DNA of 43,209 nt from Candidatus Moraniibacteriota bacterium (GCA_049303555.1 JBAQNF010000025.1:1-43209), one strand, 5' to 3'; shown: positions 734 through 38,567, numbered from the stretch's first letter. Translations and numbers: made by a program. The notes: generated by a model from the sequence alone, not told the origin.

Positions 734-863
734 GGCCTTACAAGCGATGAAGAGGCCCCTTCCAAGGTGGACAAGGAATCATCCTCTGAGCTGCGGAAAG
801 AAATTCGCCAATTGGCGAAAGTAGAATCCGCCGGGCAAGCCCGTAATAGCTGTAATTAAGAGC

Positions 864-891
864 TTGTAGCTAGTAGGTTGTAGCTAGTAGG
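864..891 (+). repeat. perfect tandem 14-mer x2 (TTGTAGCTAGTAGG) inside the T-box leader
   Basis: 864-877 and 878-891 are identical. It is followed by the palindrome AGGGAATTCCCT. The region can fold as a Stem III-like hairpin with 897-915. Confidence 0.9.
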
Positions 892-900
892 GAATTCCCT

Positions 901-931
901 AAGAAGCTAAGAACTAAAAAGCTAAAAAGCT
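901..931 (+). repeat. 31-nt AAGAAGCT/AAGAACT/AAAAAGCT/AAAAAGCT module (family A)
   Basis: Near-identical module at 5933-5963 (AAGAAGCT AAAAACT AACCAGCT AAGAAGCT), with the same 7-8-8 nt unit spacing. Confidence 0.85.
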
Positions 932-4593: not shown

Positions 4594-5120
4594 GTAAACT
4601 TATTGTTATCTGTGGGCTTCCGGGAAGTGGGAAGACTACTTTGGCGAGCGAGTTATCACGGAGATTGAATATTTTTTGTCTCCACAAGGATTCGGTTAAA
4701 GAATCACTGTTTGAATCACTGAAGCTTTCTACTTTGGAAGACAGTAAAAAAATAGGCTATCCCGCAGTTAAGGTAGCACTTGATTTAGTGGAGGAGAATA
4801 TTGGTCGCGGCATTGATGTCATTTTGGAATCGCCATTCAACTTTCCAGAGGAAGGGAAGCTTTTCGAAGAGTGGAAGGAAAAATACCACATAGATTTTTT
4901 TGCCGTTATTCTTCAGGTTGGTCCGGAAGAACGAAGACGGAGATTCGTCGAACGCGAAAGGCATCGAGCTCATCACGATACTGATCGTTTGAGAATGACG
5001 GGGAACACCCTGGAAGAGACTTGTTCTTACGATCACATCCCAGAGAAAAAACTTTTTCTCGAAACGAACAAGCCAGTCGAAGCTTTGGTTGAGAAAGTTA
5101 TGGAATTCCTTCGTTCATAA
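4590..5120 (+). CDS. P-loop NTPase / predicted kinase (AAA_33-like)
   Basis: Walker A motif GLPGSGKTT at the N-terminus; 176 aa. The start overlaps the ileS stop (ATGA), suggesting translational coupling. Confidence 0.65.
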   Translation: MSKLIVICGLPGSGKTTLASELSRRLNIFCLHKDSVKESLFESLKLSTLEDSKKIGYPAVKVALDLVEENIGRGIDVILESPFNFPEEGKLFEEWKEKYHIDFFAVILQVGPEERRRRFVERERHRAHHDTDRLRMTGNTLEETCSYDHIPEKKLFLETNKPVEALVEKVMEFLRS

Positions 5121-5147
5121 TTCTTATTTCTTGATTCTGTATTCATC
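5120..5147 (+). repeat. ATTCNNN heptad array x4 upstream of recO
   Basis: ATTCTTA TTTCTTG ATTCTGT ATTCATC, then 6 nt (CCAAAA), then ATG at 5154. Confidence 0.85.
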
Positions 5148-5876: not shown

Positions 5877-5932
5877 TTTTTTGCTATACTACGGGCAATA
5901 AGGCTGTTGGGAATCTTCTTTTTGTTTTTCCT

Positions 5933-5963
5933 AAGAAGCTAAAAACTAACCAGCTAAGAAGCT
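5933..5963 (+). repeat. 31-nt family A module upstream of the 5970 CDS
   Basis: AAGAAGCT AAAAACT AACCAGCT AAGAAGCT, then 6 nt (GCCGGT), then ATG at 5970. Matches 901-931. Confidence 0.85.
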
Positions 5964-5969
5964 GCCGGT

Positions 5970-7916
5970 ATGGGACTTGAAGAGCTGAACGAACAATTGC
6001 ACGGCCGCGACTTTCATGTCGATCGGACACGGAGGAACGATACCTTCACACCTGGCAACCAGCCTGACGGTCAGGGGGCGTCAAAATTTCAGAAAACGGA
6101 GAAGTGGAATGAGTCATCTCTGCCCAAGGAATTCATCCTTGCAGAGCCGGTACGTGCCATCATCTCTCCTGACGATGTGACCAAAAAGCGTCGGAAGCTC
6201 ATCGCTTTGGTTTTGGGAGGAATTGCCTGCGTGCTCCTCATTGGTGGGGTGATTTTGAAAATTCGAGCCGGACTGTTCTCGCCGGAAAACATCGTCTTGA
6301 ATATCGCCGGAGGGGGATCGGCCGGCAGTGCCGAGCTTGTGACGTTTGATTTTGAGTATGCCAACAACAACTGGATGGATCTCGAAAATGCCTCGGTCGT
6401 TTTCGAATATCCGGAATCTTTTCATCCAGAAGCATCCTCGAGACTCGAGATTAAGAAGTCGCGAGCTGAAGGCAAGATAGGCACTATCAAGTCCAAGGGT
6501 CAGGGCACTGTGTCGCTCTCGGGAAAATTCTATGGTTCCAAGGGAGACCAGGCCAAGATATATGCCACGCTCCGGTATAGTCCGAGCGCTTTGTCGAGTA
6601 CGTTTGAGAAGCGAGTAGAACACACGGTGGGCATTTCTTCCTCGACACTCTTTTTTGAAATCAATGCTCCACTTGAGCTGGCGTCCGATCAAGAAGCGCA
6701 GTATGAGGTGCGCTACAGAAATGAAGGTGATACAGCGTTTTCCAATCTCAAGATAAAGCTGGAGTATCCAGCCGGATTTGTTTTTACCGATGCGGATACA
6801 CCATCTTCCGGTGACGGTACTGTCTGGGAAGTGGGTACTCTGGCACCGGGGCAAGAAGGGACGCTCGTGGTGCGGGGGAGATTGTCTGGAGCGCGCGATG
6901 AGCAGAAGACTGTTCATGGTGACATCGGGTTCTTTCAGGGTGATGGGAGTTTCCTCTCCTATGGCGAGGGTCAGCGCAAGACGAAAGTGATTGCTTCCCC
7001 ATTTGTGATTCGTCAGACCGTCGAAGGAGCGACAGCAGCGACTATCGATCCGGGCAGAGATCTGCGCTATGCTCTCGAGTATCGTAACGAAGGGAACGTT
7101 GGTATTCGTGATGCTATTATTACCGTTGAACTTGATACGCCGTACCTTGATTTCAGCACACTCCAGTTTGAGGGTGGTATTTTTGGCGCGTATAATCAGG
7201 CGCGCAAAGCTATCTCGTGGAAAGCATCTGATTTCCCGGCGCTCAACCGAGTCGAGCCTGGGCAGTCAGGCAAGGTAGCCTTTTCTATCAAGTCCTATGC
7301 CGCTCCAACCAAGAAAGTGGCCGCTGCTCGTAACCCACTCATCGTGTCGGTGGCCAAGATCGACAGCCCGGATATTCCGGCCATTGTCGGGGTGACCAAG
7401 GTGGTGGCGAGTAACACTCTTTCTGTCAAACTCAATTCCGTGGTGACGAGTACACTGGAAGTGCAATATCAGGATACGGTGATTCCCAATTCTGGTCCGA
7501 CTCCTCCAGTGGTAGGGCAAGAGACTACCTATACCTTTCATCTCGCTCTCGACAATACATCCAATTCACTTCGGGACGCCCGGATGAATATCTTGTTGCC
7601 GACCGGTATCCGCTATACCGGAAATATTGTCGGTGCTGGAGAGAAGACGTTTTTCAATGAACGCACCAATGAACTCGTGTGGGATATGGGCGTGTTTGCT
7701 CCCGAGACACGGCGTGAGATAGTGTTTCAGGTGGGGGTGACTCCAAGTCCGGGAACCCGTGAGAATGATATTATGCTGGTGAGCCAGGCTCTGTTTACAG
7801 GGAAAGATACGTTTACTGAAACAGAGATCCGAGTGATGGAAGGAAAGAAAACAAACGCCGGGCTGGCTCCTTTGGCTGGTGCACCCGCACCTGATGCAGA
7901 GAGCACAAATCAATAA
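5970..7916 (+). CDS. membrane-anchored repeat protein (DUF11/CARDB-like beta-sandwich repeats, tentative)
   Basis: 648 aa. Single N-proximal TM (LIALVLGGIACVLLIGGVILKI). Recurring segments of the form ..YxxxYRNEG(D/N)..(L/I)xIxLExP... Confidence 0.5.
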   Translation: MGLEELNEQLHGRDFHVDRTRRNDTFTPGNQPDGQGASKFQKTEKWNESSLPKEFILAEPVRAIISPDDVTKKRRKLIALVLGGIACVLLIGGVILKIRAGLFSPENIVLNIAGGGSAGSAELVTFDFEYANNNWMDLENASVVFEYPESFHPEASSRLEIKKSRAEGKIGTIKSKGQGTVSLSGKFYGSKGDQAKIYATLRYSPSALSSTFEKRVEHTVGISSSTLFFEINAPLELASDQEAQYEVRYRNEGDTAFSNLKIKLEYPAGFVFTDADTPSSGDGTVWEVGTLAPGQEGTLVVRGRLSGARDEQKTVHGDIGFFQGDGSFLSYGEGQRKTKVIASPFVIRQTVEGATAATIDPGRDLRYALEYRNEGNVGIRDAIITVELDTPYLDFSTLQFEGGIFGAYNQARKAISWKASDFPALNRVEPGQSGKVAFSIKSYAAPTKKVAAARNPLIVSVAKIDSPDIPAIVGVTKVVASNTLSVKLNSVVTSTLEVQYQDTVIPNSGPTPPVVGQETTYTFHLALDNTSNSLRDARMNILLPTGIRYTGNIVGAGEKTFFNERTNELVWDMGVFAPETRREIVFQVGVTPSPGTRENDIMLVSQALFTGKDTFTETEIRVMEGKKTNAGLAPLAGAPAPDAESTNQ

Positions 7917-7927
7917 GCATACTCTTC

Positions 7928-9082
7928 ATGTCACTTTGGAAAACACGCACACAGACCGATCATGGTCGGATCGGTGAAATGATGACGAGAAAGGGGAGTT
8001 TGCAAACTCCCTTTTTTATGCCGGATGCCACGAGGGCCTCGGTACGTGGTCTGACGAGAGAGGACCTGGAAACAGTCGGCGTCGAAGCGTTGGTGGTCAA
8101 TACCTACCACCTCATGCTTCAGCCGGGCGAAGCACTTATTAAGGAAGCCGGAGACATTCATGCCTTTATGGATTGGCAGCGACCAGTTTTGTCTGATTCG
8201 GGTGGCTATCAGGTCTATTCGCTCATTCACAAAAACCCAGACCTTGGACGGATTACCGAGGAAGGAGCAGAGTTTCGCTCGGTACTTGATGGTTCCAAAT
8301 ATCTTCTCACGCCGGAACGCTCTATTCAGATCCAGTTTGATCTCGGAGTGGATATGATGGTGGTGCTCGATGATCCGCGCCCCAATGATGCTTCCGAAGA
8401 AGAAATTGTGAAGGCGGTTGATCGGACACTGCGATGGGCACGACGGTGTCGAGATGAGTATGACGCTCAGGTAAGCGCCCGCGGACTGACCGATGAAAAC
8501 AGACCACTCCTCTTTGGGGTAGTGCAGGGCGGGATGATGGTGTCTGAACGTCAGCGTTGTGCCGAAGGGCTAGTGGCGATCGGGTTTGATGGCTATGGTC
8601 TGGGCGGACGCCATGTCGATATGGAGGGGAAGTTCTTGGGCGAATTGGTGGCAGCTATTGCCTCATTTATTCCAGAAGACAGTATTCGTTTTGCGCTTGG
8701 TGTCGGCACACCGGAAGATATCGTCCGCTGTCACGCGGTGGGCTGGGATATGTTTGACTGCGTCATTCCGACCCGTGAAGGAAGACACGGACGTCTTTTC
8801 CTTTGGAAAAACGAAAACACAAATTTCAAAACACAAAAGCCAAACGAAAGCACGGCTTTACCGGTGGATTTTTATGAAACGATCAATATTAAAAACGAGC
8901 AGTTTACCAGTGATTTCACAGCAGTGGACCCGACGTGTGACTGCACACTGTGTACCAAATATACTCGGGCATATCTGAAACATCTTTTGAAAGTCGGGGA
9001 GCCACTGGCGCTACGCCTTGCTTCAGAGCACAACCTGCGCTTCTATATGCGCCTCATGGAACAGCTGCGCTTACAGAAGTGA
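7928..9082 (+). CDS. tgt: tRNA-guanine transglycosylase family protein (Tgt-like)
   Basis: Motifs seen: TPFFMP, NTYHL, SDSGGYQV, LFGVVQGG, LGVGTPEDI, DMFDCVIPTR, and the Zn motif CDCTLC..YLKHL. The usual FMPVGT is FMPDAT here. An insertion of about 20 aa (KNENTNFKTQKPNESTALP) lies before the Zn site. Confidence 0.8.
   Translation: MSLWKTRTQTDHGRIGEMMTRKGSLQTPFFMPDATRASVRGLTREDLETVGVEALVVNTYHLMLQPGEALIKEAGDIHAFMDWQRPVLSDSGGYQVYSLIHKNPDLGRITEEGAEFRSVLDGSKYLLTPERSIQIQFDLGVDMMVVLDDPRPNDASEEEIVKAVDRTLRWARRCRDEYDAQVSARGLTDENRPLLFGVVQGGMMVSERQRCAEGLVAIGFDGYGLGGRHVDMEGKFLGELVAAIASFIPEDSIRFALGVGTPEDIVRCHAVGWDMFDCVIPTREGRHGRLFLWKNENTNFKTQKPNESTALPVDFYETINIKNEQFTSDFTAVDPTCDCTLCTKYTRAYLKHLLKVGEPLALRLASEHNLRFYMRLMEQLRLQK
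8807..8855 (+). repeat. CA-rich heptad array (family C) embedded in the tgt CDS
   Basis: AAAAACG AAAACAC AAATTTC AAAACAC AAAAGCC AAACGAA AGCACGG. The 18-mer AAAACACAAAAGCCAAAC (8828-8845) is identical to 33141-33158 in the parA-parB spacer. Confidence 0.85.
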
Positions 9083-11765: not shown

Positions 11766-11793
11766 ATTCATTATTCTAAATTCCTGATTCATC
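11766..11793 (+). repeat. ATTCNNN heptad array x4 upstream of the M16 peptidase gene
   Basis: ATTCATT ATTCTAA ATTCCTG ATTCATC, then 7 nt, then ATG at 11801, which is in phase with the array. Confidence 0.85.
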
Positions 11794-13072: not shown

Positions 13073-13098
13073 ATAGGGTTTGTGCCGTCTACCACGAA

Positions 13099-13178
13099 GA
13101 ATCAGGAATCATGAAGTAAGAATTATGATTTCAAAAGAATTTCATTCTTGATTCTCTATTCTTGATTCATAATTCATC
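13099..13178. repeat. inverted heptad arrays: GAATNNN x4 then ATTCNNN x5
   Basis: GAATCAG GAATCAT GAAGTAA GAATTAT (13099-13126), a spacer, then ATTCTTG ATTCTCT ATTCTTG ATTCATA ATTCATC (13144-13178), then 6 nt and ATG at 13185. The arms are imperfectly complementary. The 19-mer GGAATCATGAAGTAAGAAT (13105-13123) recurs at 32223-32241. Confidence 0.85.
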
Positions 13179-16868: not shown

Positions 16869-17410
16869 GTATGCTCGCTAAGAATTTTGCGATAGGTGTG
16901 CAGATGGTTATCAAGGATGGTAGCCGTGTATTGCTTACCAAGCGGGAAGACTACGAAGTCTGGTGCCTGCCCGGTGGAGGGATTGACTCTGGGGAAAGTT
17001 TTGCGGAAGCAGCTATTCGAGAAGCCAAAGAGGAAACAGGGCTGGAGGTTCGCATCAAGAGACTGATAGGCGTATACTCTCGTCCTACTGAGAATTGCTA
17101 TAACCTGGTCTATGAGGGTGAGATTGTTGGTGGTGAAATTATGCAGGTTTCGAGAGAAGTGATTGAGATTGGTTGGTTTGATTATCGTGAGCTCCCGGAT
17201 CACACGATGATTTTTTATGAATACCTGATCAAGGATGCCTTTGAGTTTACTGAGCCAGTGGGTTGGAAGATTACCACCCCGAATCCTTTTGGGGATAAAA
17301 ACTACAAAGAGATGTATGCTCTGCGTGATGCCTCAGGACTTTCGAGGAAAGATTTCTATATGAAGTATTTTGGAAATCGAGCCGACTATGCAGAGATACG
17401 AGAGTGGTAG
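16865..17410 (+). CDS. NUDIX hydrolase (canonical Nudix box)
   Basis: GGGIDSGESFAEAAIREAKEETGLEV matches GX5EX7REUXEEXGU. The start overlaps the metG stop (ATGA). Confidence 0.85.
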   Translation: MSMLAKNFAIGVQMVIKDGSRVLLTKREDYEVWCLPGGGIDSGESFAEAAIREAKEETGLEVRIKRLIGVYSRPTENCYNLVYEGEIVGGEIMQVSREVIEIGWFDYRELPDHTMIFYEYLIKDAFEFTEPVGWKITTPNPFGDKNYKEMYALRDASGLSRKDFYMKYFGNRADYAEIREW

Positions 17411-17438
17411 TCTGATAAAAGGAAAAAGCGCAAGAATT

Positions 17439-18296
17439 ATGCAGGATATTCATACTCATCTCTACTGGAAAAGTTACGATGCGGATCGCGATGCGGTGGT
17501 GGCACGGGCGCGGGCAGCCGGCGTGAAGGAAATGCTGGTGATCGGTTGCACGGTAGAGGAGAGTCGCCAGGCTATTGCAGTCGCTGAGCAGTATCCGAAT
17601 ACGTATGCGTCCATCGGACTTCACCCTCAGGAATTCTTTGATGAATCCGGTCCACCAGCTGGCGGATTGAACTTGGAATCTTGGATCGCGGAGCTACGTG
17701 TTTTGGCGAAACATGAAAAAGTCATTGCCATAGGGGAATGTGGTCTTGAATATTATTCTCACAACCCGGAAAAAACGGTTACTGATGAGCAGAAAGAGGC
17801 TCAGAAGCAAGGGTTTTTGGCGCAGATTGAATTGGCGCGAGAACTGAATCTCCCACTCATTCTCCACTGCCGCACCGAGCAGGGGAAGAGTGACGCCTAT
17901 GAGGATGTGTTTGAAATTTTACAAGCTACCAACTACAAACTACCAGCTATTTTGCACTGCTATATGGGTGATACCGAAGTGACACGGAAATTTCTCACTT
18001 TGCCCAATGTGTACTTTTCCTTTACGGGCAACATCACCTATCCGATAAAGAAGCCGGTAGCGGGAACCAAGGATGATCTGACCGAGACCGTGAAGCTTAT
18101 CCCGCTCGAGCGGATATTTACTGAGACCGATTGCCCGTTCCTGACGCCCCAGTCACACCGAGGGGAACGCAATGAGCCGGCCTATGTGATGGAAGTCGCG
18201 GCCAAGATTGCCGAGCTTCAGGGTGTTGATGTGGCGACTGTCGAGCGGGCGACCGAAGCAAATTTCAGAAAAGTTTTTACGAAAATATTAGCTTAA
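17439..18296 (+). CDS. tatD: TatD family metal-dependent hydrolase
   Basis: The N-terminus is MQDIHTHL, with GECGLEYY and LHC motifs typical of TatD. The ATG at 17439 was chosen because the TatD homology begins at the HTH motif. Confidence 0.85.
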   Translation: MQDIHTHLYWKSYDADRDAVVARARAAGVKEMLVIGCTVEESRQAIAVAEQYPNTYASIGLHPQEFFDESGPPAGGLNLESWIAELRVLAKHEKVIAIGECGLEYYSHNPEKTVTDEQKEAQKQGFLAQIELARELNLPLILHCRTEQGKSDAYEDVFEILQATNYKLPAILHCYMGDTEVTRKFLTLPNVYFSFTGNITYPIKKPVAGTKDDLTETVKLIPLERIFTETDCPFLTPQSHRGERNEPAYVMEVAAKIAELQGVDVATVERATEANFRKVFTKILA

Positions 18297-21645: not shown

Positions 21646-21682
21646 TAGTGGAGTTTTGAATTTCGAATTTTGTTTCATCAAT

Positions 21683-21710
21683 ATTCTGAATTCTAAATTC
21701 TACATTCTGA
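21683..21710 (+). repeat. ATTCNNN heptad array x4 upstream of atpA
   Basis: ATTCTGA ATTCTAA ATTCTAC ATTCTGA, then 6 nt (AAAAAT), then ATG at 21717. It lies inside a 71-nt intra-operon spacer. Confidence 0.9.
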
Positions 21711-28657: not shown

Positions 28658-28948
28658 ATGAAAACGTATTACGTGTATATTTTGGCGAGTCAAAGAAACG
28701 GCACGCTCTATGTCGGTGTAACATCCGACTTACTCAAACGTATCTGGGAGCATAAGAATAAAAAAGTAAAAGGCTTTACTGAAAAGTATGGAGTCGATAT
28801 GTTGGTATATTTCGAAGAAACGAATGACGTGCGATCGGCTCTCGAGAGAGAAAAGATTTTAAAAAAATGGAGAAGGGCTTGGAAACTTGAGTTGATTGAA
28901 AAAGAAAATCCAGAGTGGAAAGATCTGTATGAGAAGATGATTACTTAA
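28658..28948 (+). CDS. GIY-YIG (URI-domain) nuclease family protein
   Basis: YYVYILASQRNGTLYVGVTSDLLKRIWEH...EREKILKKW matches the small stand-alone GIY-YIG (YhbQ/COG2827-like) pattern. Confidence 0.85.
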   Translation: MKTYYVYILASQRNGTLYVGVTSDLLKRIWEHKNKKVKGFTEKYGVDMLVYFEETNDVRSALEREKILKKWRRAWKLELIEKENPEWKDLYEKMIT

Positions 28949-31137: not shown

Positions 31138-31971
31138 ATGGCGCTTTTGTACGGCAAACCAATTGCAGAGAGAATCCTTTCAGACGTGAAGGATCGTATT
31201 GAAGGTATGGATACCGCGCCAGGACTGGCGGTGGTGCTGGTCGGTGACTCTGTCGAGTCACACAAGTATGTCGGGTTGAAAGAAGAACGCGCGGGGGAAG
31301 TAGGGATTCATTTTGAGAAGTATCTTTTTCCCAAGGAGGTAGACTGCCAAGAAATATTCCGATGCATCGAGATGCTCAATACCAAGAGTGATATCCATGG
31401 CATCATCGTGCAGCTGCCGCTTCCGGAGGGTTTTCCGACGGATGAGATTATCGCTCACATTGATCCGAAGAAAGATACAGATGGATTTCACGCGGATACG
31501 ATTCGGAAGTTTCTGGCGGGGGATTTTTCCTGTTGTCCGGTGTTTCCCCGTGCTATTGTGGACCTCATCCGGGAAACGAAAGAGACTTTTCATGGTGAAA
31601 AAGCGGTGGTGGTCGCAAATTCAGACTTGATGGGGAAGGTGATGGCGTTTACACTGTCACTGGAGGGATTGGAGAGCGGTTATATCCTCAGTTCGGAAGG
31701 TCGTGAAGCGATTGCTCGAAAAACACAAGAGGCCAGAGTAGTCGTGACCGCCTGTGGTATTCTGGACCTTCTGACGGCTGATATGCTCTCGTCAGAGGCT
31801 ATCGTTATCGATGGTGGTACTGTCCGGGTGAACGGCAAGGTACAGGGAGATGTGAAACAGGAAGAGGTGGAAAAGAAAGTGGCGTTTCTGTCGCCAGTAC
31901 CGGGCGGTGTCGGACCGGTGACGGTAGCGACGCTGCTGGCTCGAGTGACGGATGCTGCTCTGAAAAATTAA
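31138..31971 (+). CDS. folD: bifunctional methylenetetrahydrofolate dehydrogenase/cyclohydrolase
   Basis: LAVVLVGDSVESHKYV, HGIIVQLPLP, KDTDGFH and PVPGGVGPVT motifs. Confidence 0.92.
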   Translation: MALLYGKPIAERILSDVKDRIEGMDTAPGLAVVLVGDSVESHKYVGLKEERAGEVGIHFEKYLFPKEVDCQEIFRCIEMLNTKSDIHGIIVQLPLPEGFPTDEIIAHIDPKKDTDGFHADTIRKFLAGDFSCCPVFPRAIVDLIRETKETFHGEKAVVVANSDLMGKVMAFTLSLEGLESGYILSSEGREAIARKTQEARVVVTACGILDLLTADMLSSEAIVIDGGTVRVNGKVQGDVKQEEVEKKVAFLSPVPGGVGPVTVATLLARVTDAALKN

Positions 31972-32000
31972 AAATATCAAGGTCTGACCTTGATATTTTT
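31972..32000. terminator. bidirectional intrinsic terminator between folD and tRNA-Leu
   Basis: AAATATCAAGG-TCTGA-CCTTGATATTT hairpin, flanked by an A-run on the 5' side and a T-run on the 3' side. Confidence 0.8.
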
Positions 32001-32042: not shown

Positions 32043-32128
32043 TGGTGCCGAGGGAGGGACTTGAACCCTCATGATATTGCTATCGCGGGATTTTGAGTCC
32101 CGTGTGTCTACCATTCCACCACCTCGGC
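32043..32128 (-). tRNA. tRNA-Leu (anticodon CAA), type II with long variable arm, CCA encoded
   Basis: The reverse complement folds as follows: acceptor GCCGAGG/CCTCGGC; D-arm GTGG-AATGGTAGA-CAC; anticodon stem CGGGA/TCCCG with loop CTCAAAA; a 16-nt variable arm; T-arm GAGGG-TTCAAGT-CCCTC; then ACCA. Confidence 0.93.
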
Positions 32129-32174
32129 AATTTTCCTTTATTGTAGCCAATTGTCTGAAAGAGGCATAGAGACA

Positions 32175-32203
32175 GGATAGAAAATTGATAATCATTTGTC
32201 AAT
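32175..32203 (+). promoter_or_regulatory. near-consensus promoter (TTGATA-17-TATAAT) for parA
   Basis: Hexamers at 32175-32180 and 32198-32203 with a 17-nt spacer. Confidence 0.65.
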
Positions 32204-32223
32204 GGACTATAATGGTTGAAGAG

Positions 32224-32328
32224 GAATCATGAAGTAAGAATCAGGAATCATGGTCAGAGACTATGACTATATTCTGGTGCTTCTTTCGTCTTGATTCATA
32301 AGTCTTGATTCTGTATTCACGCAAGAAA
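32224..32328. repeat. 15 phased heptads (105 nt) forming the parA 5' leader
   Basis: GAATCAT GAAGTAA GAATCAG GAATCAT GGTCAGA GACTATG ACTATAT TCTGGTG CTTCTTT CGTCTTG ATTCATA AGTCTTG ATTCTGT ATTCACG CAAGAAA, then ATG at 32329. The two halves are imperfectly complementary. Confidence 0.85.
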
Positions 32329-33120
32329 ATGGCCAAGGTTATTGGGTTCGTCAATCAAAAAGGCGGAGTAGGAAAAACTACTTCGACGATTAACGTTGCC
32401 ACGTATTTGGCCCAGGCCGGCAAAAAGGTGCTTCTGGTTGATCTCGACCCACAGGGCAATGCTTCGTCGGGACTTGGAATTGATGCCAAACGTCTGGAAA
32501 AAAACCTCTACCATGCCATGATTCTCGGCCAGCCGGTACAGGAAATTGTATTGCGGACGGAAACGGAAGGACTGCATATTATTCCGGCAGCGCAGGACTT
32601 GGCGGGAGCAGAGATCGAGATGGTTCATATTGAAAATCGTGAATTCCGGTTGCACAATGCGCTCCGATCGGTGCGCCCGTACTATGACTATATCTTGATC
32701 GATAGCCCTCCATCACTTGGGCTCTTGACGATCAATGGCTTGGTAGCTTCTGATGAGGTGATTATTCCGGTGCAGACAGAATACTATGCATTGGAAGGAC
32801 TCTCTCAACTTTTGGGTACGATAGAGCTCGTTCGTGAGCATTTGCAGCCGAATCTGAAAATCTGCGGAGCACTTCTCACGTTGTACGATCGTCGCAACCG
32901 GTTGGCGCGTCAGGTAGTATCGGAAGTGCGTTCGCATTTTCCTGGGCCAGTTTTTGAAAATGTCATTCCACGATCAGTACGTCTCGCAGAAGCGCCCAGT
33001 TTTGGTAAATCTATTCTCGATTTTGATGCTTTTTCCAAGGGGGCTCGTGCCTACAAGGGCGTGGTACGAGAATTGATTGCCCGCGAGGAAGAGGAGAAGA
33101 AAAAACTGAAAGTCCTTTAG
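32329..33120 (+). CDS. parA: ParA/Soj chromosome partitioning ATPase
   Basis: Deviant Walker A motif NQKGGVGKTT plus typical Soj motifs. The ATG at 32329 (MAKVIGF) is preferred. Confidence 0.93.
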   Translation: MAKVIGFVNQKGGVGKTTSTINVATYLAQAGKKVLLVDLDPQGNASSGLGIDAKRLEKNLYHAMILGQPVQEIVLRTETEGLHIIPAAQDLAGAEIEMVHIENREFRLHNALRSVRPYYDYILIDSPPSLGLLTINGLVASDEVIIPVQTEYYALEGLSQLLGTIELVREHLQPNLKICGALLTLYDRRNRLARQVVSEVRSHFPGPVFENVIPRSVRLAEAPSFGKSILDFDAFSKGARAYKGVVRELIAREEEEKKKLKVL

Positions 33121-33126
33121 TATGAA

Positions 33127-33250
33127 AAAGCACAAAACAGAAAACACAAAAGCCAAACAAAGCATAAAGCACGGACTTCAAACGAACTTGTGTTTTTGGT
33201 TTTGAAAAATGGATTTTATTTGGTATTTGTAATTTGAGCTTTGAAATTTG
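33127..33250. repeat. CA-rich then TG-rich heptad arrays filling the parA-parB spacer
   Basis: AAAGCAC AAAACAG AAAACAC AAAAGCC AAACAAA (33127-33161), then CTTGTGTTTTTGGTTTTG, then TTTATTG GTATTTG TAATTTG AGCTTTG AAATTTG (33216-33250), then 6 nt and ATG at 33257. Confidence 0.8.
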
Positions 33251-33256
33251 ATACAT

Positions 33257-34219
33257 ATGGCATCGCAACAATATGGATTGGGCAGAGGGTTGGCGTCACT
33301 TATCCCACCGCGTAAGCAAGCGGATGGCGGCGGGTCGCCTTTTGTCATCACCCCTGTCACACAGGCTTTCCCGCAGGAGGCGACAACAGATGTCGCTCCA
33401 AGCAAAGCAGGGGCAGTTGTACCGACTACAATACCGACACCACCAGCAGATGGACTTATGGAAATCCCGATTCAGAAAATTGTTCCGAATCCTCATCAGC
33501 CGAGACTTCATTTTGATGAGGCAAAACTGCAAGAATTGGCTGATTCTATCAAAGAGCACGGGATTTTGCAGCCGCTCGTGGTGACCAAAAACGGAGAGAC
33601 ATATGAAATTATTGCCGGAGAGCGTCGGTTTCAGGCTGCCAAACGAGCGGGACTCGAGACGGTGCCTGTGATGGTGCGTGATGTCACCGAGCAGCAGAAA
33701 CTTGAGCTGGCCATTATCGAAAATATCCAGCGTCATGATCTCAATCCTATCGAAGAGGCCAAGGCCTATTTGCGTTTGGTAGATGAATTTAGTTTGCCGC
33801 AGGAGCAGGTAGCGCAGAAGATGGGCAAGAGTCGGAGCGCGGTGGCCAATACATTGCGGTTGCTCCACCTTCCTATCGAGATTCAGCGCGCGGTCGCTTC
33901 GGGTAAGATTACCGAAGGTCACGCCAAGGCACTCCTCGCTATTGAAAATCCAGAAAAACAACGGGCGGTATTCGATCTCATCATCAAAGAAGAATTGACG
34001 GTACGCGAAACCGAATTGAAAGTACGAAGTATCGCCGTCAACCCACACATGCGAAGCTCGGTCGTGCTCAATCCGGAACTGCTGGAACGAACAGAACATC
34101 TGACAGAAATACTTGGTACCAAAGTGAAGATTGCACCATCTGGAAAAGGTGGCAAGGTAGTGATTGAATATTATTCTCCAGAAGATTTGGATGGACTGTT
34201 GAAACGATTGGAAGAATAG
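33257..34219 (+). CDS. parB: ParB/Spo0J partition protein
   Basis: GLGRGLASLIP, ILQPLVV, GERRFQAAKRAGL and an HTH region (QEQVAQKMGKSRSAVANTLRLL). Confidence 0.93.
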   Translation: MASQQYGLGRGLASLIPPRKQADGGGSPFVITPVTQAFPQEATTDVAPSKAGAVVPTTIPTPPADGLMEIPIQKIVPNPHQPRLHFDEAKLQELADSIKEHGILQPLVVTKNGETYEIIAGERRFQAAKRAGLETVPVMVRDVTEQQKLELAIIENIQRHDLNPIEEAKAYLRLVDEFSLPQEQVAQKMGKSRSAVANTLRLLHLPIEIQRAVASGKITEGHAKALLAIENPEKQRAVFDLIIKEELTVRETELKVRSIAVNPHMRSSVVLNPELLERTEHLTEILGTKVKIAPSGKGGKVVIEYYSPEDLDGLLKRLEE

Positions 34220-34270
34220 TTTGGAAATAGCAAAATCCAAATTTTAAATGCCAAATAACCCTGTAGTTTT

Positions 34271-34326
34271 GTGTGTTTTGACTCCCGTGTTTTGTCTGGA
34301 TTTTGTGCTTTGAAACTTGTGTCTTG
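34271..34326 (+). repeat. TG-rich heptads upstream of the LamG gene
   Basis: GTGTTTT recurs at a 14-nt spacing, followed by GATTTTG TGCTTTG AAACTTG TGTCTTG (TTG ends at 34305, 34312, 34319 and 34326), then 8 nt and ATG at 34335. The reverse complement resembles the array at 33127-33150. Confidence 0.7.
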
Positions 34327-34334
34327 AAGAGAGT

Positions 34335-37300
34335 ATGTCTTACGACGTTACCAAATCGAGAATCTTCCAGTGGCTTGGTATCATCCTGATACTGGCTGTT
34401 TTTGCTGGTGCCTACTGGTACTTCAAAGTGTACGGGAGCACGCTCAACGCTCCGCAGAATGACCTCAACACCAATGGCCTGGTCGGCCTCTGGTCGTTCA
34501 ATGGGGATGATATCAGTGGTGTCACCGCCTACGACCGGAGTGGCCAGGGGAACAATGGTACCCTCACGAGTGGCCCGACTGCGACGCAGGGCAAAGTAGG
34601 TCAGGCGCTGTCATTTGATGGAGCAGACGACAGCGTTTCGATCACGGGAGATATTATTGGGACGGGGGCCGATTCAGTCTGTGCCTGGGTGTACCCTCGT
34701 TCCGTAGGAGAAAACAGTTACGGACGTATTTTGTCAGGGGCTATTGAGAAATTTATTTTCATTATAGATTTTTCTTCTAAATTTGCTCTTCTCTCAGATG
34801 GAAGTACTGCTATTTATAGCCCTACCATTTCGTTGAATCGTTGGACTTTTGCCTGTGCCACGAGGGACGCAGCGGGAGCGGGAGTGATTTATATGGATGG
34901 TGTGGCAGTTTCTTCGGGGAGTACTGGTACGCCAGCTTCTAATGGCGCGACAACCTATATTGGGAATCGATCTACAGGAGACCGTACTTTTGATGGTTCT
35001 ATCGACGAAGTGCGTATTTATAATCGTGCTTTATCAGCTGGCGAAATCCAGTCCCTCTATACCCAGGGCAGCGGCACCAAAGTCGACTCGGCTGTTTCGC
35101 AACCTCAGGGCACCGGCCGGCTCGACAGTGGCCTGGCTGGCTACTGGAAGCTCGATGATGGCAGTGGCACCAGTATTACCAATAGCGCTACGATTGGCGG
35201 AACGACGTCTCTGACGGGAACTCCGAGCTGGACTACGGGCCAAATTGGCAGTGCCGTGGATTTTGATGGAGTGGACGATACGGCAGCTGTCACCTACAAT
35301 ACGGCGTTTACTTCATCCAATGCTCTTACCTATTCATTTTGGGCCAAACCAGATTTAAATGAAGGGAATGGAATTTTAGGATCGCTCAATGGTGAAAATG
35401 GATCAGCTTACAATTTTATTATCATAGACAATAATGGAGCGCAGTTGGGAACCCCACTCATTTCACTTCTAAGAAATATTGGGGGTACGGCTACCCGATC
35501 AGTCCAATTTACGTACCCTGTCAGCACCTGGTTTCACTATACTTATACATATGATGGTGCCAATGAACGAGTGTATATCAATGGGGCACAGGCTGGAGAG
35601 TGGGCCCAGACAGGCAGTTTCGCTTCTAATACGGAATATGGTTTAGTTTTTGGAAGAGCCCACACGACAGCAATACAGTACTATGATGGAGCTTTGGATG
35701 AGGTACGGATGTACAATCGCCCTCTTTCGTCTGACGAAGTTTCACAGCTTTACCGTCTCACTGCTCCCACATCGGTCGACACCGGTCTCAAAGGCTACTG
35801 GAGCTTCAATGGCAAAGATGTTTCCGGAACCACTGCTTACGACCGCTCTGGCGCCGGCAATACTGGCACTCTGACCAACGGCCCAACGGTGACGGATGGC
35901 AAGGTGGGGCAGGCGCTCAGTTTCGACGGGGCGGATGATTATGTAAATATACCTGATTCAACCGCACTCGATATCGGCGACACAGACGACCTGACTCTCA
36001 CCGGGTGGTTTTATCGGGATACCTCTACTACCGAGGATACTATCGTTGCCAAGCGCAATGGTCTGACATCGCCTTATGTCGGCTACATCGCCTATCTTGA
36101 CGCTGCTAACGACGAACTGACTTTTGAAGTTTCCGATGGCGTCGACGAATATTCCCTTACTTCGGTCTCAACCTTCACGACTACTGGCTGGCATCAGTAT
36201 GCCATCGTGTGGGATCAGGCCTCGGCAACCAATTCCGACATATACATTGACGGAGTAGCGAATGGCGCCACTGATACCGGCACGATCGGGAATATCGGTG
36301 ACCTCTCGAATGCCCTTGTCTTGGCCCAAGGAGCAGAATCAGACGCTAACAACCCGTTCGATGGTAGGCTGGATGAATTTCGCTTCTACAATCGCGCTCT
36401 TACTGCCACGGAAATCCAGTCCCTCTACGCCTTAGGAGGTGGCACCAAGGTAAACAGCAGCATCTCCCAAAATCAGGGCACGGGCCGGATCGACTCGGGC
36501 CTCGCTGGATACTGGGCGATGGATGAGGGGAGCGGCACCAGTGCCACTGATGCTTCAACAAACGGCAACACCGGCACCCTCACCAATGGACCGACATGGA
36601 CGACGGGACAGGTAGGCGGCGCAGTGACATTTGACGGGACAGACGATTACATTGACGTTGGAACAGCCGGGCTTACCAGTCCTACGAAATTAAGTGGAGC
36701 AGCTTGGATTAAAATTGATGATGTAGTTTTCGCAGAGTCTTATAACTTTTTTTCCAACCGTTCGGCCAGTAATCATGGCTGGACATTTGGAACGAGCGGT
36801 GGGGCTGCTAATTGTAGTGGAGTAGATTGTGATATGTTGAGGTTTACCATTCAGGGTGTGGCATCATACTCCACGACAGATAGGTTGATCATCGAAGGGC
36901 AATGGACTCATGTGGCCTTTACATGGAATGGCTCTTCCGTTTCGCTTTATGTTAATGGCAGGGTAGTGCAAACATTCAGTACGGGTTCTATGATCACTGG
37001 TTCTAACCTTCTTTTGGGTGTTCAGGGTCCATCACCCGGAGTAGCGGGGATGTTCATGGATGGGCTCATTGATGAAGCGCGGATCTATGATCGCGCTCTC
37101 TCGGCGGATGAAGTAGAACAACTCTACCTCCTCACCGCTCCCACCGGGGTAGATACCGGGCTCAAAGGCTACTGGAGCTTCAATGGTAAAGATGTCAGTG
37201 GTACGACCGCCTATGACCGCTCTGGCGTCGGCAACACTGGCACTCTGACCAACGGCCCCGCCATCACCGAAGGCCAGCTCGGCCAGGCGCTTAACTTTGA

Positions 37301-37832
37301 TGGGACGGATGACTATGTCGATGCTGGGGATATCGCTTCCGCTGACGGTGGCACGGCACTGACCTATGCCGCGTGGGTCTATCAGGATAGTCTTGCCGTG
37401 AATAAAGCTATAACTGCCAAGTGGACATACCAGACTCAGGGTAGTTGGGCTATTCAAACTGATTTTACAACCAATACCAAGCTTCAGGTTTTCATACCAA
37501 CCAGTCTCACGGATAGTGGCAGTGGAGCCAGCGCCACCACGCCAACCAGTTCCTGGTCAGCTGGCGTATGGCATCACGTGGTTTTTATTTATGATGGCAG
37601 TCAGGGAACTGATACGAATCGACTGCAAGTATATATCGATGGGATTTCACAGACGCTCACATTCGTTGGAACTATGCCTACGTCTATGCAGGCATCTACA
37701 GCTGCAGTGAAAATTGGACAGTTTGGGGGTACGTTGAATCGTCCTTGGAATGGCAAGATTGACGAAGTTCGCATCTACAACCGAGCCCTCACCGCCGCCG
37801 AAATCGCCGCCCTCTATAACTCCTCCCGCTAA
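34335..37832 (+). CDS. membrane-anchored protein with five LamG (concanavalin A-like lectin, Laminin_G_3-type) domains
   Basis: N-terminal TM WLGIILILAVFAGAYWYF. There are five modules. Each opens with GL(V/A/K)G(L/Y)W.(F/L/M).(G/E).. and ..G(Q/S/G)A(L/V).FDG.DD. Each closes with (I/L)DE(V/F/A)R(I/M/F)Y(N/D)R(A/P)L(S/T)..E(I/V)..LY. Confidence 0.85.
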   Translation: MSYDVTKSRIFQWLGIILILAVFAGAYWYFKVYGSTLNAPQNDLNTNGLVGLWSFNGDDISGVTAYDRSGQGNNGTLTSGPTATQGKVGQALSFDGADDSVSITGDIIGTGADSVCAWVYPRSVGENSYGRILSGAIEKFIFIIDFSSKFALLSDGSTAIYSPTISLNRWTFACATRDAAGAGVIYMDGVAVSSGSTGTPASNGATTYIGNRSTGDRTFDGSIDEVRIYNRALSAGEIQSLYTQGSGTKVDSAVSQPQGTGRLDSGLAGYWKLDDGSGTSITNSATIGGTTSLTGTPSWTTGQIGSAVDFDGVDDTAAVTYNTAFTSSNALTYSFWAKPDLNEGNGILGSLNGENGSAYNFIIIDNNGAQLGTPLISLLRNIGGTATRSVQFTYPVSTWFHYTYTYDGANERVYINGAQAGEWAQTGSFASNTEYGLVFGRAHTTAIQYYDGALDEVRMYNRPLSSDEVSQLYRLTAPTSVDTGLKGYWSFNGKDVSGTTAYDRSGAGNTGTLTNGPTVTDGKVGQALSFDGADDYVNIPDSTALDIGDTDDLTLTGWFYRDTSTTEDTIVAKRNGLTSPYVGYIAYLDAANDELTFEVSDGVDEYSLTSVSTFTTTGWHQYAIVWDQASATNSDIYIDGVANGATDTGTIGNIGDLSNALVLAQGAESDANNPFDGRLDEFRFYNRALTATEIQSLYALGGGTKVNSSISQNQGTGRIDSGLAGYWAMDEGSGTSATDASTNGNTGTLTNGPTWTTGQVGGAVTFDGTDDYIDVGTAGLTSPTKLSGAAWIKIDDVVFAESYNFFSNRSASNHGWTFGTSGGAANCSGVDCDMLRFTIQGVASYSTTDRLIIEGQWTHVAFTWNGSSVSLYVNGRVVQTFSTGSMITGSNLLLGVQGPSPGVAGMFMDGLIDEARIYDRALSADEVEQLYLLTAPTGVDTGLKGYWSFNGKDVSGTTAYDRSGVGNTGTLTNGPAITEGQLGQALNFDGTDDYVDAGDIASADGGTALTYAAWVYQDSLAVNKAITAKWTYQTQGSWAIQTDFTTNTKLQVFIPTSLTDSGSGASATTPTSSWSAGVWHHVVFIYDGSQGTDTNRLQVYIDGISQTLTFVGTMPTSMQASTAAVKIGQFGGTLNRPWNGKIDEVRIYNRALTAAEIAALYNSSR

Positions 37833-37844
37833 ATATCTCTCCAA

Positions 37845-37875
37845 CAAGCCAATATACAGCGGTTCAACCCCTGTA
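37845..37875 (+). repeat. REP-like hairpin, left copy
   Basis: The core TACAGCGG-TTCAA-CCCCTGTA forms an 8-position stem with one C-C mismatch. Confidence 0.9.
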
Positions 37876-37885
37876 AGATACTCAT

Positions 37886-38533
37886 ATGTCAACGAGAAAA
37901 ACACCACTGGTGACAGGGGAAATCTATCACGTTTACAATCGTGGCGTAGACAAAAGAAGTATCGTTGGAGATGAATTCGACAGCGAAAGGTTTTTGAAGA
38001 GTATGGTTGCTTTTAATACCGGGTGTCCGGTATTGAGTCTACGTAACGCTGAACTCATCTACAGCGGTTCAACCCCTGTAGATCCTTTGGTGGAAGTTAT
38101 CGCTTATTGCTTAAATCCCAATCATTTTCATCTGATTCTACGGCAGACAGTGGACGGCGGTGTGAGTGAATTTATGAAGCGATTGTCGGGAGGATACACG
38201 TGGTATTTCAATAACAAATATGAACGAAGTGGAAGTTTGTTTCAAGGAAGATATAAATCGGTGCATGTTGATACTAATGAGTATCTTCTTCAGCTGAGTG
38301 TTTATGTTACGCTGAATTTTCGTGCGCATGACTATGAGAGTTCGATTGATATGAATTTGATTCGTTCGAGTTGGGATGAGTATTCCCGAAAAATCAAACG
38401 ACCTTTTTGTAAAAAAGATGAGATACTTGGGCAATTTCGAAATAAAAAAGAGTATGTTAGATTTGCTGAACAAACAATTATAGGAATTCGAGGAAGAAAA
38501 GTATTGGGTCAAGAGCTTGGTTCAATCGAATAG
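37886..38533 (+). CDS. REP-associated tyrosine transposase / IS200-like Y1 (HUH) transposase family protein
   Basis: YHVYNRG, the AYCLNPNHFHLIL HUH motif, and YFNNKYERSGSLFQGRYKS are typical of COG1943/PF01797 RayT-like proteins. Confidence 0.85.
   Translation: MSTRKTPLVTGEIYHVYNRGVDKRSIVGDEFDSERFLKSMVAFNTGCPVLSLRNAELIYSGSTPVDPLVEVIAYCLNPNHFHLILRQTVDGGVSEFMKRLSGGYTWYFNNKYERSGSLFQGRYKSVHVDTNEYLLQLSVYVTLNFRAHDYESSIDMNLIRSSWDEYSRKIKRPFCKKDEILGQFRNKKEYVRFAEQTIIGIRGRKVLGQELGSIE
38060..38080 (+). repeat. REP-like hairpin, internal copy inside the RAYT CDS
   Basis: TACAGCGGTTCAACCCCTGTA is identical to the core of the left copy, is in the same orientation, and encodes YSGSTPV in frame. Confidence 0.9.
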
Positions 38534-38536
38534 TTC

Positions 38537-38567
38537 TACAGGGGTTGAACCGCTGTATATTGGCTTG
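38537..38567 (-). repeat. REP-like hairpin, right (inverted) copy
   Basis: Exact reverse complement of 37845-37875. It ends 11 nt before the convergent manC stop. Confidence 0.9.

Follow-up and report, generated by a model that had tools for sequence, protein, structure and literature searches.

Ahead of parA in a stretch of Candidatus Moraniibacteriota DNA lies a leader built of 7-nucleotide (nt) units, which a preliminary description had read as a phased imperfect palindrome and likened to plasmid partition sites. The stretch, hereafter the window, comprises 43,209 nt of one strand (GCA_049303555.1 JBAQNF010000025.1:1-43209) and is a piece of a Candidatus Moranbacteria chromosome; its ParA is 69-95% identical to ParA at 80 loci of Candidatus Moranbacteria and related Patescibacteria genome bins, and these 80 related parA loci, 474 kb in total, formed our comparison set. 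We found that heptad arrays of this kind stand at a fixed distance from the start codons of unrelated genes, with the ATTC core always on the sense strand. At a probability of roughly 45%, our preferred reading is that the parA leader is an instance of a clade-wide translation-initiation element acting at the mRNA level in Candidatus Moranbacteria, which on this reading do without Shine-Dalgarno (SD) sites. The shared design consists of four to five degenerate heptads (here T-T-K-A-T-T-C) on the sense strand, ending 9-10 nt before the start and followed by an A-rich stretch and AUG, and about half of the arrays are preceded by an inverted one of the same heptad family.

Heptad arrays ahead of start codons

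The ATTC array is not specific to par. On the + strand of the window, (ATTCNNN)4-5 arrays lie directly before the ATG of five genes, namely recO, an M16 peptidase gene, an AI-2E transporter gene, atpA and parA (Table 1), with the final ATTC of every array beginning at -13 or -14 relative to the first nucleotide of the start codon. The AI-2E gene, atpA and parA have an inverted (GAATNNN)n arm upstream as well; recO and the M16 peptidase gene have the start-proximal arm alone. Placement is independent of promoters, with one array inside the atp operon and another, at recO, running over the final codons of the preceding gene, a kinase-like one with its end at 5120. Counting arrays of at least four ATTC/GAAT units, we obtained seven in the window and none in 300 second-order Markov simulations. 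GANTC methylation sites (GATTC/GAATC) are present in many units, are absent from the atpA array and from the other families described below, and were treated as incidental.

The preliminary description had also pointed to a 19-mer, GGAATCATGAAGTAAGAAT, shared between parA and the AI-2E gene together with the same arm organisation, and both observations held up: the 19-mer is identical at 32223-32241 and 13105-13123 (chance expectation 0.03 even with three mismatches allowed), and both arms were found ahead of the AI-2E gene. These two loci are the only ones in the window at which the 19-mer is seen, and the order of units is permuted between the surroundings of the two copies. We considered the exact 19-mer as a dispersed element and rejected it, as a scan of a metagenome collection that does not include the source genome returned eight matches (five distinct) that were mostly attributable to chance and for the most part had no heptad context.

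Periodicity of seven extends well beyond the window. We scored tracts at lags 4 to 15 with shuffled sequence as a control, and across the 80 loci there were 47 tracts at lag 7, 15 at lag 14 and at most seven at every other lag, compared with 0-1 in shuffled sequence; the window alone gave eight tracts at lag 7 and no more than two at other lags. The tracts are concentrated outside genes, 83% of those with period 7 falling in the 17.6% of the DNA outside long open reading frames (ORFs). Within intergenic DNA, 45% of them abut an ORF-opening ATG, compared with 13.7% of random intergenic segments, a 3.3-fold enrichment. Orientation is equally constrained: over all loci a start directly follows 19 of 36 ATTC arrays and none of 36 GAAT arrays, and among arrays of other families that are followed by a start, ATAC outnumbers GTAT by 9 to 1 and TTTG outnumbers CAAA by 8 to 1. 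The spacing to the start is 13-14 nt in 13 of the 19 start-linked ATTC arrays, and the right arm and ATG align in register across the five window genes and five relatives. An upstream partner with significant complementarity accompanies 29 of the 62 start-adjacent arrays, and about half have no partner arm. A handful of core families turns up again and again across many loci and genomes. The parA leader is apparently one copy of an undescribed feature that is widespread in Moranbacteria; a literature search for heptad repeats in the Candidate Phyla Radiation (CPR)/Patescibacteria found nothing specific. In some more distant relatives (the parA-parB spacers of L069, L070, L073 and L074), the start-proximal arrays have a period of 8 (CGTTAATC, CAATTTAA) or 9.

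The sequence around the starts is unusual in a second respect. Taking pairing with the anti-SD at -6 kcal/mol or better as the threshold and an assumed 16S rRNA tail (neither the window nor any related locus that we fetched contains a 16S gene), we found an SD-like site at 0 of 26 window starts, compared with 11% of the random 17-mers that served as background. SD motifs are depleted relative to random sequence at these starts, where G makes up 14% of positions -20 to -1, and the A-rich 9-10 nt that precede the ATG begin where the array ends. Together, the fixed distance to the start, the absolute strand bias, the sites inside an operon and over a gene end, the independence from promoters and the lack of SD sites point to a role on the mRNA at initiation.

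Two other roles in translation were considered and set aside. Pairing of UGAUUC with the GGAUCA stretch of 16S rRNA was rejected because the core lies too far from the AUG for the geometry to be right and because several cores coexist, and this coexistence argues against any non-canonical SD pairing of an AUUC/UGAUUC core. The arrays might also act as a three-frame stop barrier, since all three frames are closed in 48% of arrays compared with 23% of shuffles and 31% on the antisense strand. The effect, though real, is incomplete, and the period by itself is enough to produce it; for this reason we did not adopt it as the function.

The parA leader, its promoter and its relatives

Re-reading the sequence confirmed that 105 nt (15 x 7) separate position 32224 from the parA ATG at 32329. 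Read in sevens from 32224, the leader opens with the four left-arm heptads, passes through a central segment and ends with the five right-arm heptads and CAAGAAA (Table 1). The continuous 15-heptad register that had been proposed for this interval survived only in part. Both arms are periodic, successive heptads agreeing at 4, 4 and 6 of 7 positions in the left arm and at 5, 3, 4, 4 and 4 of 7 in the right arm, whereas the central five heptads show no periodicity (1, 2, 0, 2 and 2 of 7); because the periodicity is confined to the two arms, the leader is not one continuous array. A register common to both arms (offset 0 mod 7) holds in five of ten ATTC-type leaders, some of them close relatives, and the arms of the AI-2E leader fall outside it (offset 3 mod 7); we regard the common register as suggestive only. 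The shared 19-mer contains a minimal ORF, ATG AAG TAA (32229-32237 and 13111-13119), which at parA is some 10 nt away from the predicted start of transcription. Another ORF, of 14 codons, runs from a second upstream ATG at 32250 to a TGA within the right arm.

The array is very probably a transcribed leader, as had been suggested, because a strong promoter precedes it, retained in 63 of the 80 related loci as the motif TTG-N9-11-GTCAAT followed by a -10 box. The TTGATA-17-TATAAT promoter of the preliminary description does exist and matches 11 of 12 consensus positions, but it sits at 32185-32213 rather than at 32175-32203, a shift of 10 nt that brings its -10 box (32208-32213) inside the interval 32204-32328 previously given for the leader. 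With the promoter in this position, the predicted transcript start (about 32219-32221, transcription itself being inferred) coincides with the first unit of the left arm. Given that start, the whole 5' untranslated region of parA would consist of arm, loop, arm, about 7 nt and AUG. The sequences TTGATT and CATAAT also occur within the arrays, and we rejected them by eye as internal promoters since their spacing is wrong (14-15 nt).

The conserved region around the promoter, TTGATAatcatTTGTCAA (window 32174-32213), has the appearance of a dyad and comprises two overlapping divergent -35 boxes. TTGATA on the + strand serves parA, and TTGACA on the - strand (32202-32197), with TATCCT at 32179-32174, faces a tRNA-Leu(CAA) gene at 32128-32043; the divergent -35 motif is kept in 63 of 80 relatives, some of which have no adjoining tRNA gene. 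Between folD and tRNA-Leu, a 14-bp AT-rich stem, AAAAATATCAAGGTCAGACCTTGATATTTTT at 31970-32000, with T runs on both strands, looks like a bidirectional terminator. In an Rfam search the tRNA-Leu was the sole match at the gathering threshold, and no match with an E-value up to 1 fell within 32100-34400.

An unrelated, non-periodic parA leader in related genomes had been named as the observation that would count against the array, and it is not what the relatives show: they carry periodic leaders, often of unrelated sequence, or none. In 16 loci the parA ATG follows the -10 box by 6-11 nt (63 of the 80 keep the promoter), which implies a leaderless mRNA. In 41 loci the leader is longer than 40 nt, mostly 80-120 nt, and seven is the best period in 26 of these 41. 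Cores differ even among genomes with 90-95% identical ParA (ATTC, ATAC, GTTG, TTTCAAA and others), and the two arms of each leader belong to the same heptad family, inverted, though the family varies between genomes. The parA-parB spacer behaves in the same way as the leader. In 17 of the 26 heptad-type leaders, the periodic tract begins at most 14 nt from the predicted transcript start.

Table 1. Heptad arrays and associated features of the window, with positions counted from its first nucleotide.
Feature	Position	Strand	Remarks
parA promoter: TTGATA (32185-32190), 17-nt spacer, TATAAT (32208-32213)	32185-32213	+	Consensus scan, 11/12
parA leader, left (5') arm, (GAATCAN)4, inverted ATTC units GAATCAT GAAGTAA GAATCAG GAATCAT	32221-32250	+	Holds the 19-mer and the minimal ORF
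parA leader, small stem-loop of the central segment	32248-32266	+	Folding
parA leader, central segment without heptad periodicity	32252-32286	+	Heptad identity
parA leader, right (start-proximal) arm, (NNNATTC)5, CGTCTTG ATTCATA AGTCTTG ATTCTGT ATTCACG	32287-32321	+	Last ATTC at -14
A-rich 7-nt spacer CAAGAAA and parA start codon ATG (32329-32331)	32322-32331	+	No SD motif
parA/soj, 263 aa, ParA-type P-loop ATPase	32329-33120	+	Pfam AAA_31 at 7e-67, CbiA
recO, single-arm array, five units	5113-5147	+	ATG 5154; last ATTC at -13
M16 peptidase gene, single-arm (ATTCNNN)4	11766-11793	+	ATG 11801; last ATTC at -14
AI-2E transporter gene, two-arm copy: left 13096-13130, right (ATTCNNN)5 13144-13178	13096-13178	+	ATG 13185; last ATTC at -13
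atpH-atpA spacer in atp operon, two-arm copy: left 21648-21668, right (ATTCNNN)4 21683-21710	21648-21710	+	ATG 21717; last ATTC at -13
parA-parB spacer: (AAAACAN)n 33122-33159, (NNNTTTG)5 33216-33253	33122-33253	+	parB ATG 33257 directly after
Leader of large LamG-domain gene: AAATNNN units, then GTTTTGT-type units	34220-34316	+	By eye
TAGCTAG / AAGCTAA heptad tracts upstream of NUDIX gene	860-931	+	Repeat family and period scan
Tract related to the 860-931 family	5927-5963	+	Before gene starting at 5970

Mechanism and competing explanations

We infer every step of the mechanism that would follow from a role in translation initiation. The element would act on the mRNA at initiation, its G-poor start-proximal array serving as a landing or recognition platform in place of an SD site. 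By one route, the platform would bind a single-strand-specific OB-fold protein (ribosomal protein S1, for example, or a cold-shock-type protein) whose footprint is about 7 nt for each domain. Where an inverted upstream array is present, it would pair with the start-proximal array. The resulting hairpin, long and regularly mismatched, would mask the platform and possibly shield the 5' end of the transcript as well; at parA it would be 5'-terminal.

Several observations weigh against this reading. Close relatives manage without any parA leader, so the array is dispensable at parA. The coexistence of ATTC, TTTG and AAGCTAA cores in one genome means that several binders, or one loosely specific binder, would be needed. 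A general avoidance of G close to starts could by itself produce the orientation rule. Predicted accessibility between -9 and +6 is moderate, with a mean unpaired probability over 26 leaders of 0.50 compared with 0.34 for the arm, and this prediction has no power to discriminate between models. The remaining points concern the pairing of the arms. The rough complementarity noted in the preliminary description is there but is weak by itself, the best ungapped register giving 22 matches in 42 positions, and folding, which it had proposed as a check, gave unremarkable z-scores of -1.3 at parA and -1.5 at the AI-2E gene, with -4.4 at atpA. Covariation, the companion check, failed to support a selected RNA stem in three tests. 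Mismatches in 27 arm alignments show no sense-strand G-U excess (GT 35, AC 47, other 118), and an arm's pairing with its own partner is no stronger than its pairing with arms taken from other genes or genomes. The left arm of parA, for example, pairs with its own right arm at -21.2 kcal/mol and with the arms of recO, the peptidase gene and the AI-2E gene at -23.0, -21.2 and -24.5 kcal/mol; for the AI-2E left arm the best partner is the recO arm (-33.2 compared with -21.2 kcal/mol for its own partner), and among ten ATTC-type parA leaders the own partner ranks from 2nd to 10th of 10.

Because the arms pair as well with foreign arms as with their own, the palindrome is the same motif placed on both sides and not a co-evolved stem. 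We therefore dropped the selected stem as a candidate, on the 35 to 47 ratio of GT to AC mismatches, the equal pairing of own and foreign arms and the weak folding z-scores. A transcript holding both arms would still fold, even though co-evolution of the paired positions finds no support. The complementarity of the AI-2E left arm (13096-13130) to the recO array (5113-5147), 8 kb away, extends over 33 nt at 82%, and leaders could conceivably pair in trans with one another or with an antisense RNA not yet seen.

The main rival to an initiation element is that the arrays are mutational by-products, heptanucleotide tracts born by slippage that decay and survive where they are harmless and keep G away from the start, and that are functionless in themselves. 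In most prokaryotic genomes the long simple repeats are most often heptanucleotides, and polymerase slippage has been proposed as their cause (Mrazek 2007, as summarised in PMC4679880). Turnover is very fast, with different cores or no leader at 90-95% ParA identity; some spacers have a period of 8 or 9; the arms lack fine covariation; and the unit order is permuted between the two copies of the 19-mer. These points favour a slippage origin. Against it are the tight spacing of 13-14 nt, an enrichment at start codons that persists within intergenic DNA, the small set of core families that recurs across loci and genomes, and the fact that both arms are always of one family. Moreover, the units are degenerate rather than identical, and would be a poor substrate for continued slippage. 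We consider this explanation possible, though unlikely.

Quite unlikely, to our minds, is a second explanation in which the hairpin itself is functional and heptads are simply the way in which the stem is built: a 5' or intercistronic stem could guard against 5'-end-dependent decay, offer a site for a double-strand RNase, or bring the 5' end or an upstream stop close to the AUG. It gains from the left arm of parA beginning at the predicted transcript start, as the tracts nearly do in most heptad-type leaders, from the partnered minority of start-adjacent arrays (29 of 62), from the z-score at the atpH-atpA spacer, and from the way in which the family of both arms changes together between genomes. 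Against it stand the unpartnered half, including recO and the M16 peptidase gene, and the results on pairing set out above: the absence of a G-U excess over A-C, own arms that pair no better than foreign ones and the weak z-scores at parA and the AI-2E gene. A functional hairpin would also leave both the period of seven and the fixed distance to the ATG unexplained.

A bolder form of the initiation reading takes the arrays as a signal for start-site selection, in which every family (ATTC, ATAC, TTTG, TAGAAAT and others) would serve as an address code recognised by a dedicated antisense RNA or protein that binds single-stranded RNA. Families would then define post-transcriptional regulons, and the inverted cis arm would be a built-in competitor. 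We hold this to be very doubtful; if true, it would mean that a major, uncultivated bacterial lineage starts and controls translation by a new logic.

The analogy drawn in the preliminary description was to protein binding on double-stranded DNA. The omega repressor of inc18 plasmids such as pSM19035 uses heptad arrays as operator and centromere, over par and copy-control promoters, and is encoded by an omega gene of the ribbon-helix-helix (RHH) type; it takes contiguous heptads in either orientation. An omega-like repressor, a centromere protein or a nucleoid-associated protein could in principle occupy the Moranbacteria arrays, which likewise consist of contiguous 7-bp units, direct and inverted, with one copy adjoining a ParA-type ATPase gene. 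AATCA is common to the GAATCAN unit and WATCACW, and arms that share a motif without fine complementarity are as expected for a protein site. Yet the omega analogy breaks down on four counts: consensus, location, gene specificity and the absence of an RHH gene. The units GAATCAN/TTKATTC do not fit WATCACW, as the C at position 6 is absent, and other leaders have ATAC, TTTG and other, unrelated cores. Rather than overlapping a promoter, the arrays are found downstream of the -10 box, within an operon or across the end of a coding sequence. It is the ATG, not a promoter, to which they are phased; their strand bias is absolute, and they precede five unrelated housekeeping genes on the chromosome. 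The preliminary description had seen no small RHH gene and a ParB of the classical helix-turn-helix type, and Pfam agrees on both: scans of the window genes and several small ORFs found no RHH domain. A search of the window for a parS-like 16-bp palindrome close to TGTTNCACGTGAAACA gave 0 matches with up to three mismatches. We judge DNA binding of this sort distinctly improbable, and such arrays beside parA should not be taken for centromeres.

A dispersed mobile palindromic element, of the miniature inverted-repeat (MITE) or repetitive extragenic palindromic (REP) kind and spread by a transposase, is highly improbable despite the two-arm palindromic copies at several loci, the 19-mer identical at two of them and a RAYT-like Y1 transposase gene in the window, for the copies have no conserved ends or target duplications, differ in length and loop sequence, are in many cases single-armed, carry different cores at the same site in different genomes and contain a 19-mer that is not dispersed in metagenomes. 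Assignment to REP elements or bacterial interspersed mosaic elements (BIMEs) with a RAYT was rejected because the heptad arrays have no fixed ends and the 31-nt repeats that flank the transposase gene are its own and unrelated to them.

Known heptad repeats and further features of the window

The closest known system is that of the TAACTGA heptamers, which immediately precede start codons in marine Beggiatoaceae and in some Cyanobacteria and Bacteroidetes (MacGregor 2015, PMC4679880). These heptamers appear to substitute for SD sites, with S1, Csp and CsrA proposed as binders and the function unproven, and CspB binds one protein per heptamer (PMC4679880). Like the Moranbacteria arrays, they are tandem heptamers (2-6 units there, 4-5 here) in forward orientation near the starts of unrelated and operon genes that have no SD. 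The Moranbacteria units differ in being degenerate, with a core of 4-6 nt plus variable positions, in belonging to several core families per genome that change between close relatives, in having an inverted partner in about half of the arrays, which makes the leader capable of forming a hairpin, and in a register to the ATG fixed at -13/-14. They also come from a CPR lineage. Since the units are degenerate and of other families, we regard them as a variant of the TAACTGA kind and not as the same repeat.

Next closest are the cyanobacterial heptamers. The STRR sequences of Nostoc and Anabaena are contiguous heptamer repeats. Contiguous heptamers (TTTTGAA/TTCAAAA) lie near starts or promoters in these organisms, including before recO, and their deletion changes reporter output (Pradhan et al. 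2022, bioRxiv 10.1101/2022.06.06.494920). The likeness is in their genome-wide occurrence near start codons, and TTGAAAA-type heptads are also found in Moranbacteria relatives; in contrast, the cyanobacterial arrays are mostly exact tandem copies that can be long, with no two-arm design or fixed start register reported. The long simple repeats of prokaryotes, as far as they are summarised in PMC4679880 (Mrazek 2007), share the unit of seven, the non-coding location and the sporadic distribution across taxa, but are exact and detected by length, whereas the arrays described here are short, degenerate, strand-specific and tied to starts.

REP elements have a conserved sequence and lie mostly 3' of genes, and stabiliser hairpins have no internal periodicity. 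Both 5' stabiliser hairpins and REP/BIME elements resemble the arrays as imperfect palindromes in transcribed non-coding DNA with a possible effect on mRNA stability, and neither accounts for single-arm arrays at -13/-14.

These arrays bear on how start codons are chosen in the very large and mostly uncultivated CPR/Patescibacteria. Recurrent, strand-specific and precisely placed repeats precede many housekeeping genes and provide concrete candidate sequences for the recruitment of ribosomes or proteins. With them, heptamer repeats like those known from Beggiatoaceae and cyanobacteria extend to a third, distant lineage, a link that suggests a class of translation-initiation signals that is general but has gone unrecognised. 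The -13/-14 register is also useful for the annotation of start codons. The parB ORF, for instance, opens at TTG 33248, and the (NNNTTTG)5 array of the parA-parB spacer runs through this codon; because the array covers the TTG and an in-frame ATG lies at the usual position after it, ATG 33257 is the more likely start of parB. TTTG heptads are found at the same parA-parB position in related loci L009, L036 and L038.

The other heptad families of the window are listed in Table 1. The tract at 34220-34316 was missed by the threshold of the heptad scan, and the repeat search gave only a similarity to a heptad tract near 8814 (inverted pair). Few period-7 tracts are coding; one, AAGCTAC CAACTAC AAACTAC CAGCTAT at 17916-17951, lies within a TatD-family ORF (17370-18296). 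Directly after parB, the gene at 34317-37832 encodes a 1171-aa protein with five LamG/concanavalin-like domains, and in its DNA repeats recur roughly every 690 nt, one pair being 35697-35944 and 37071-37318, with 78% identity. The Y1 transposase gene (IS200-like, RAYT-like; 37886-38533) lies between two 31-nt repeats, 37845-37875 and 38537-38567, that are perfectly complementary; a third copy of the repeat core, ACAGCGGTTCAACCCCTGTA, is inside the gene at 38057-38082. Finally, a stand-alone gene for a 96-aa GIY-YIG nuclease domain occupies 28658-28948, in the spacer after leuS.

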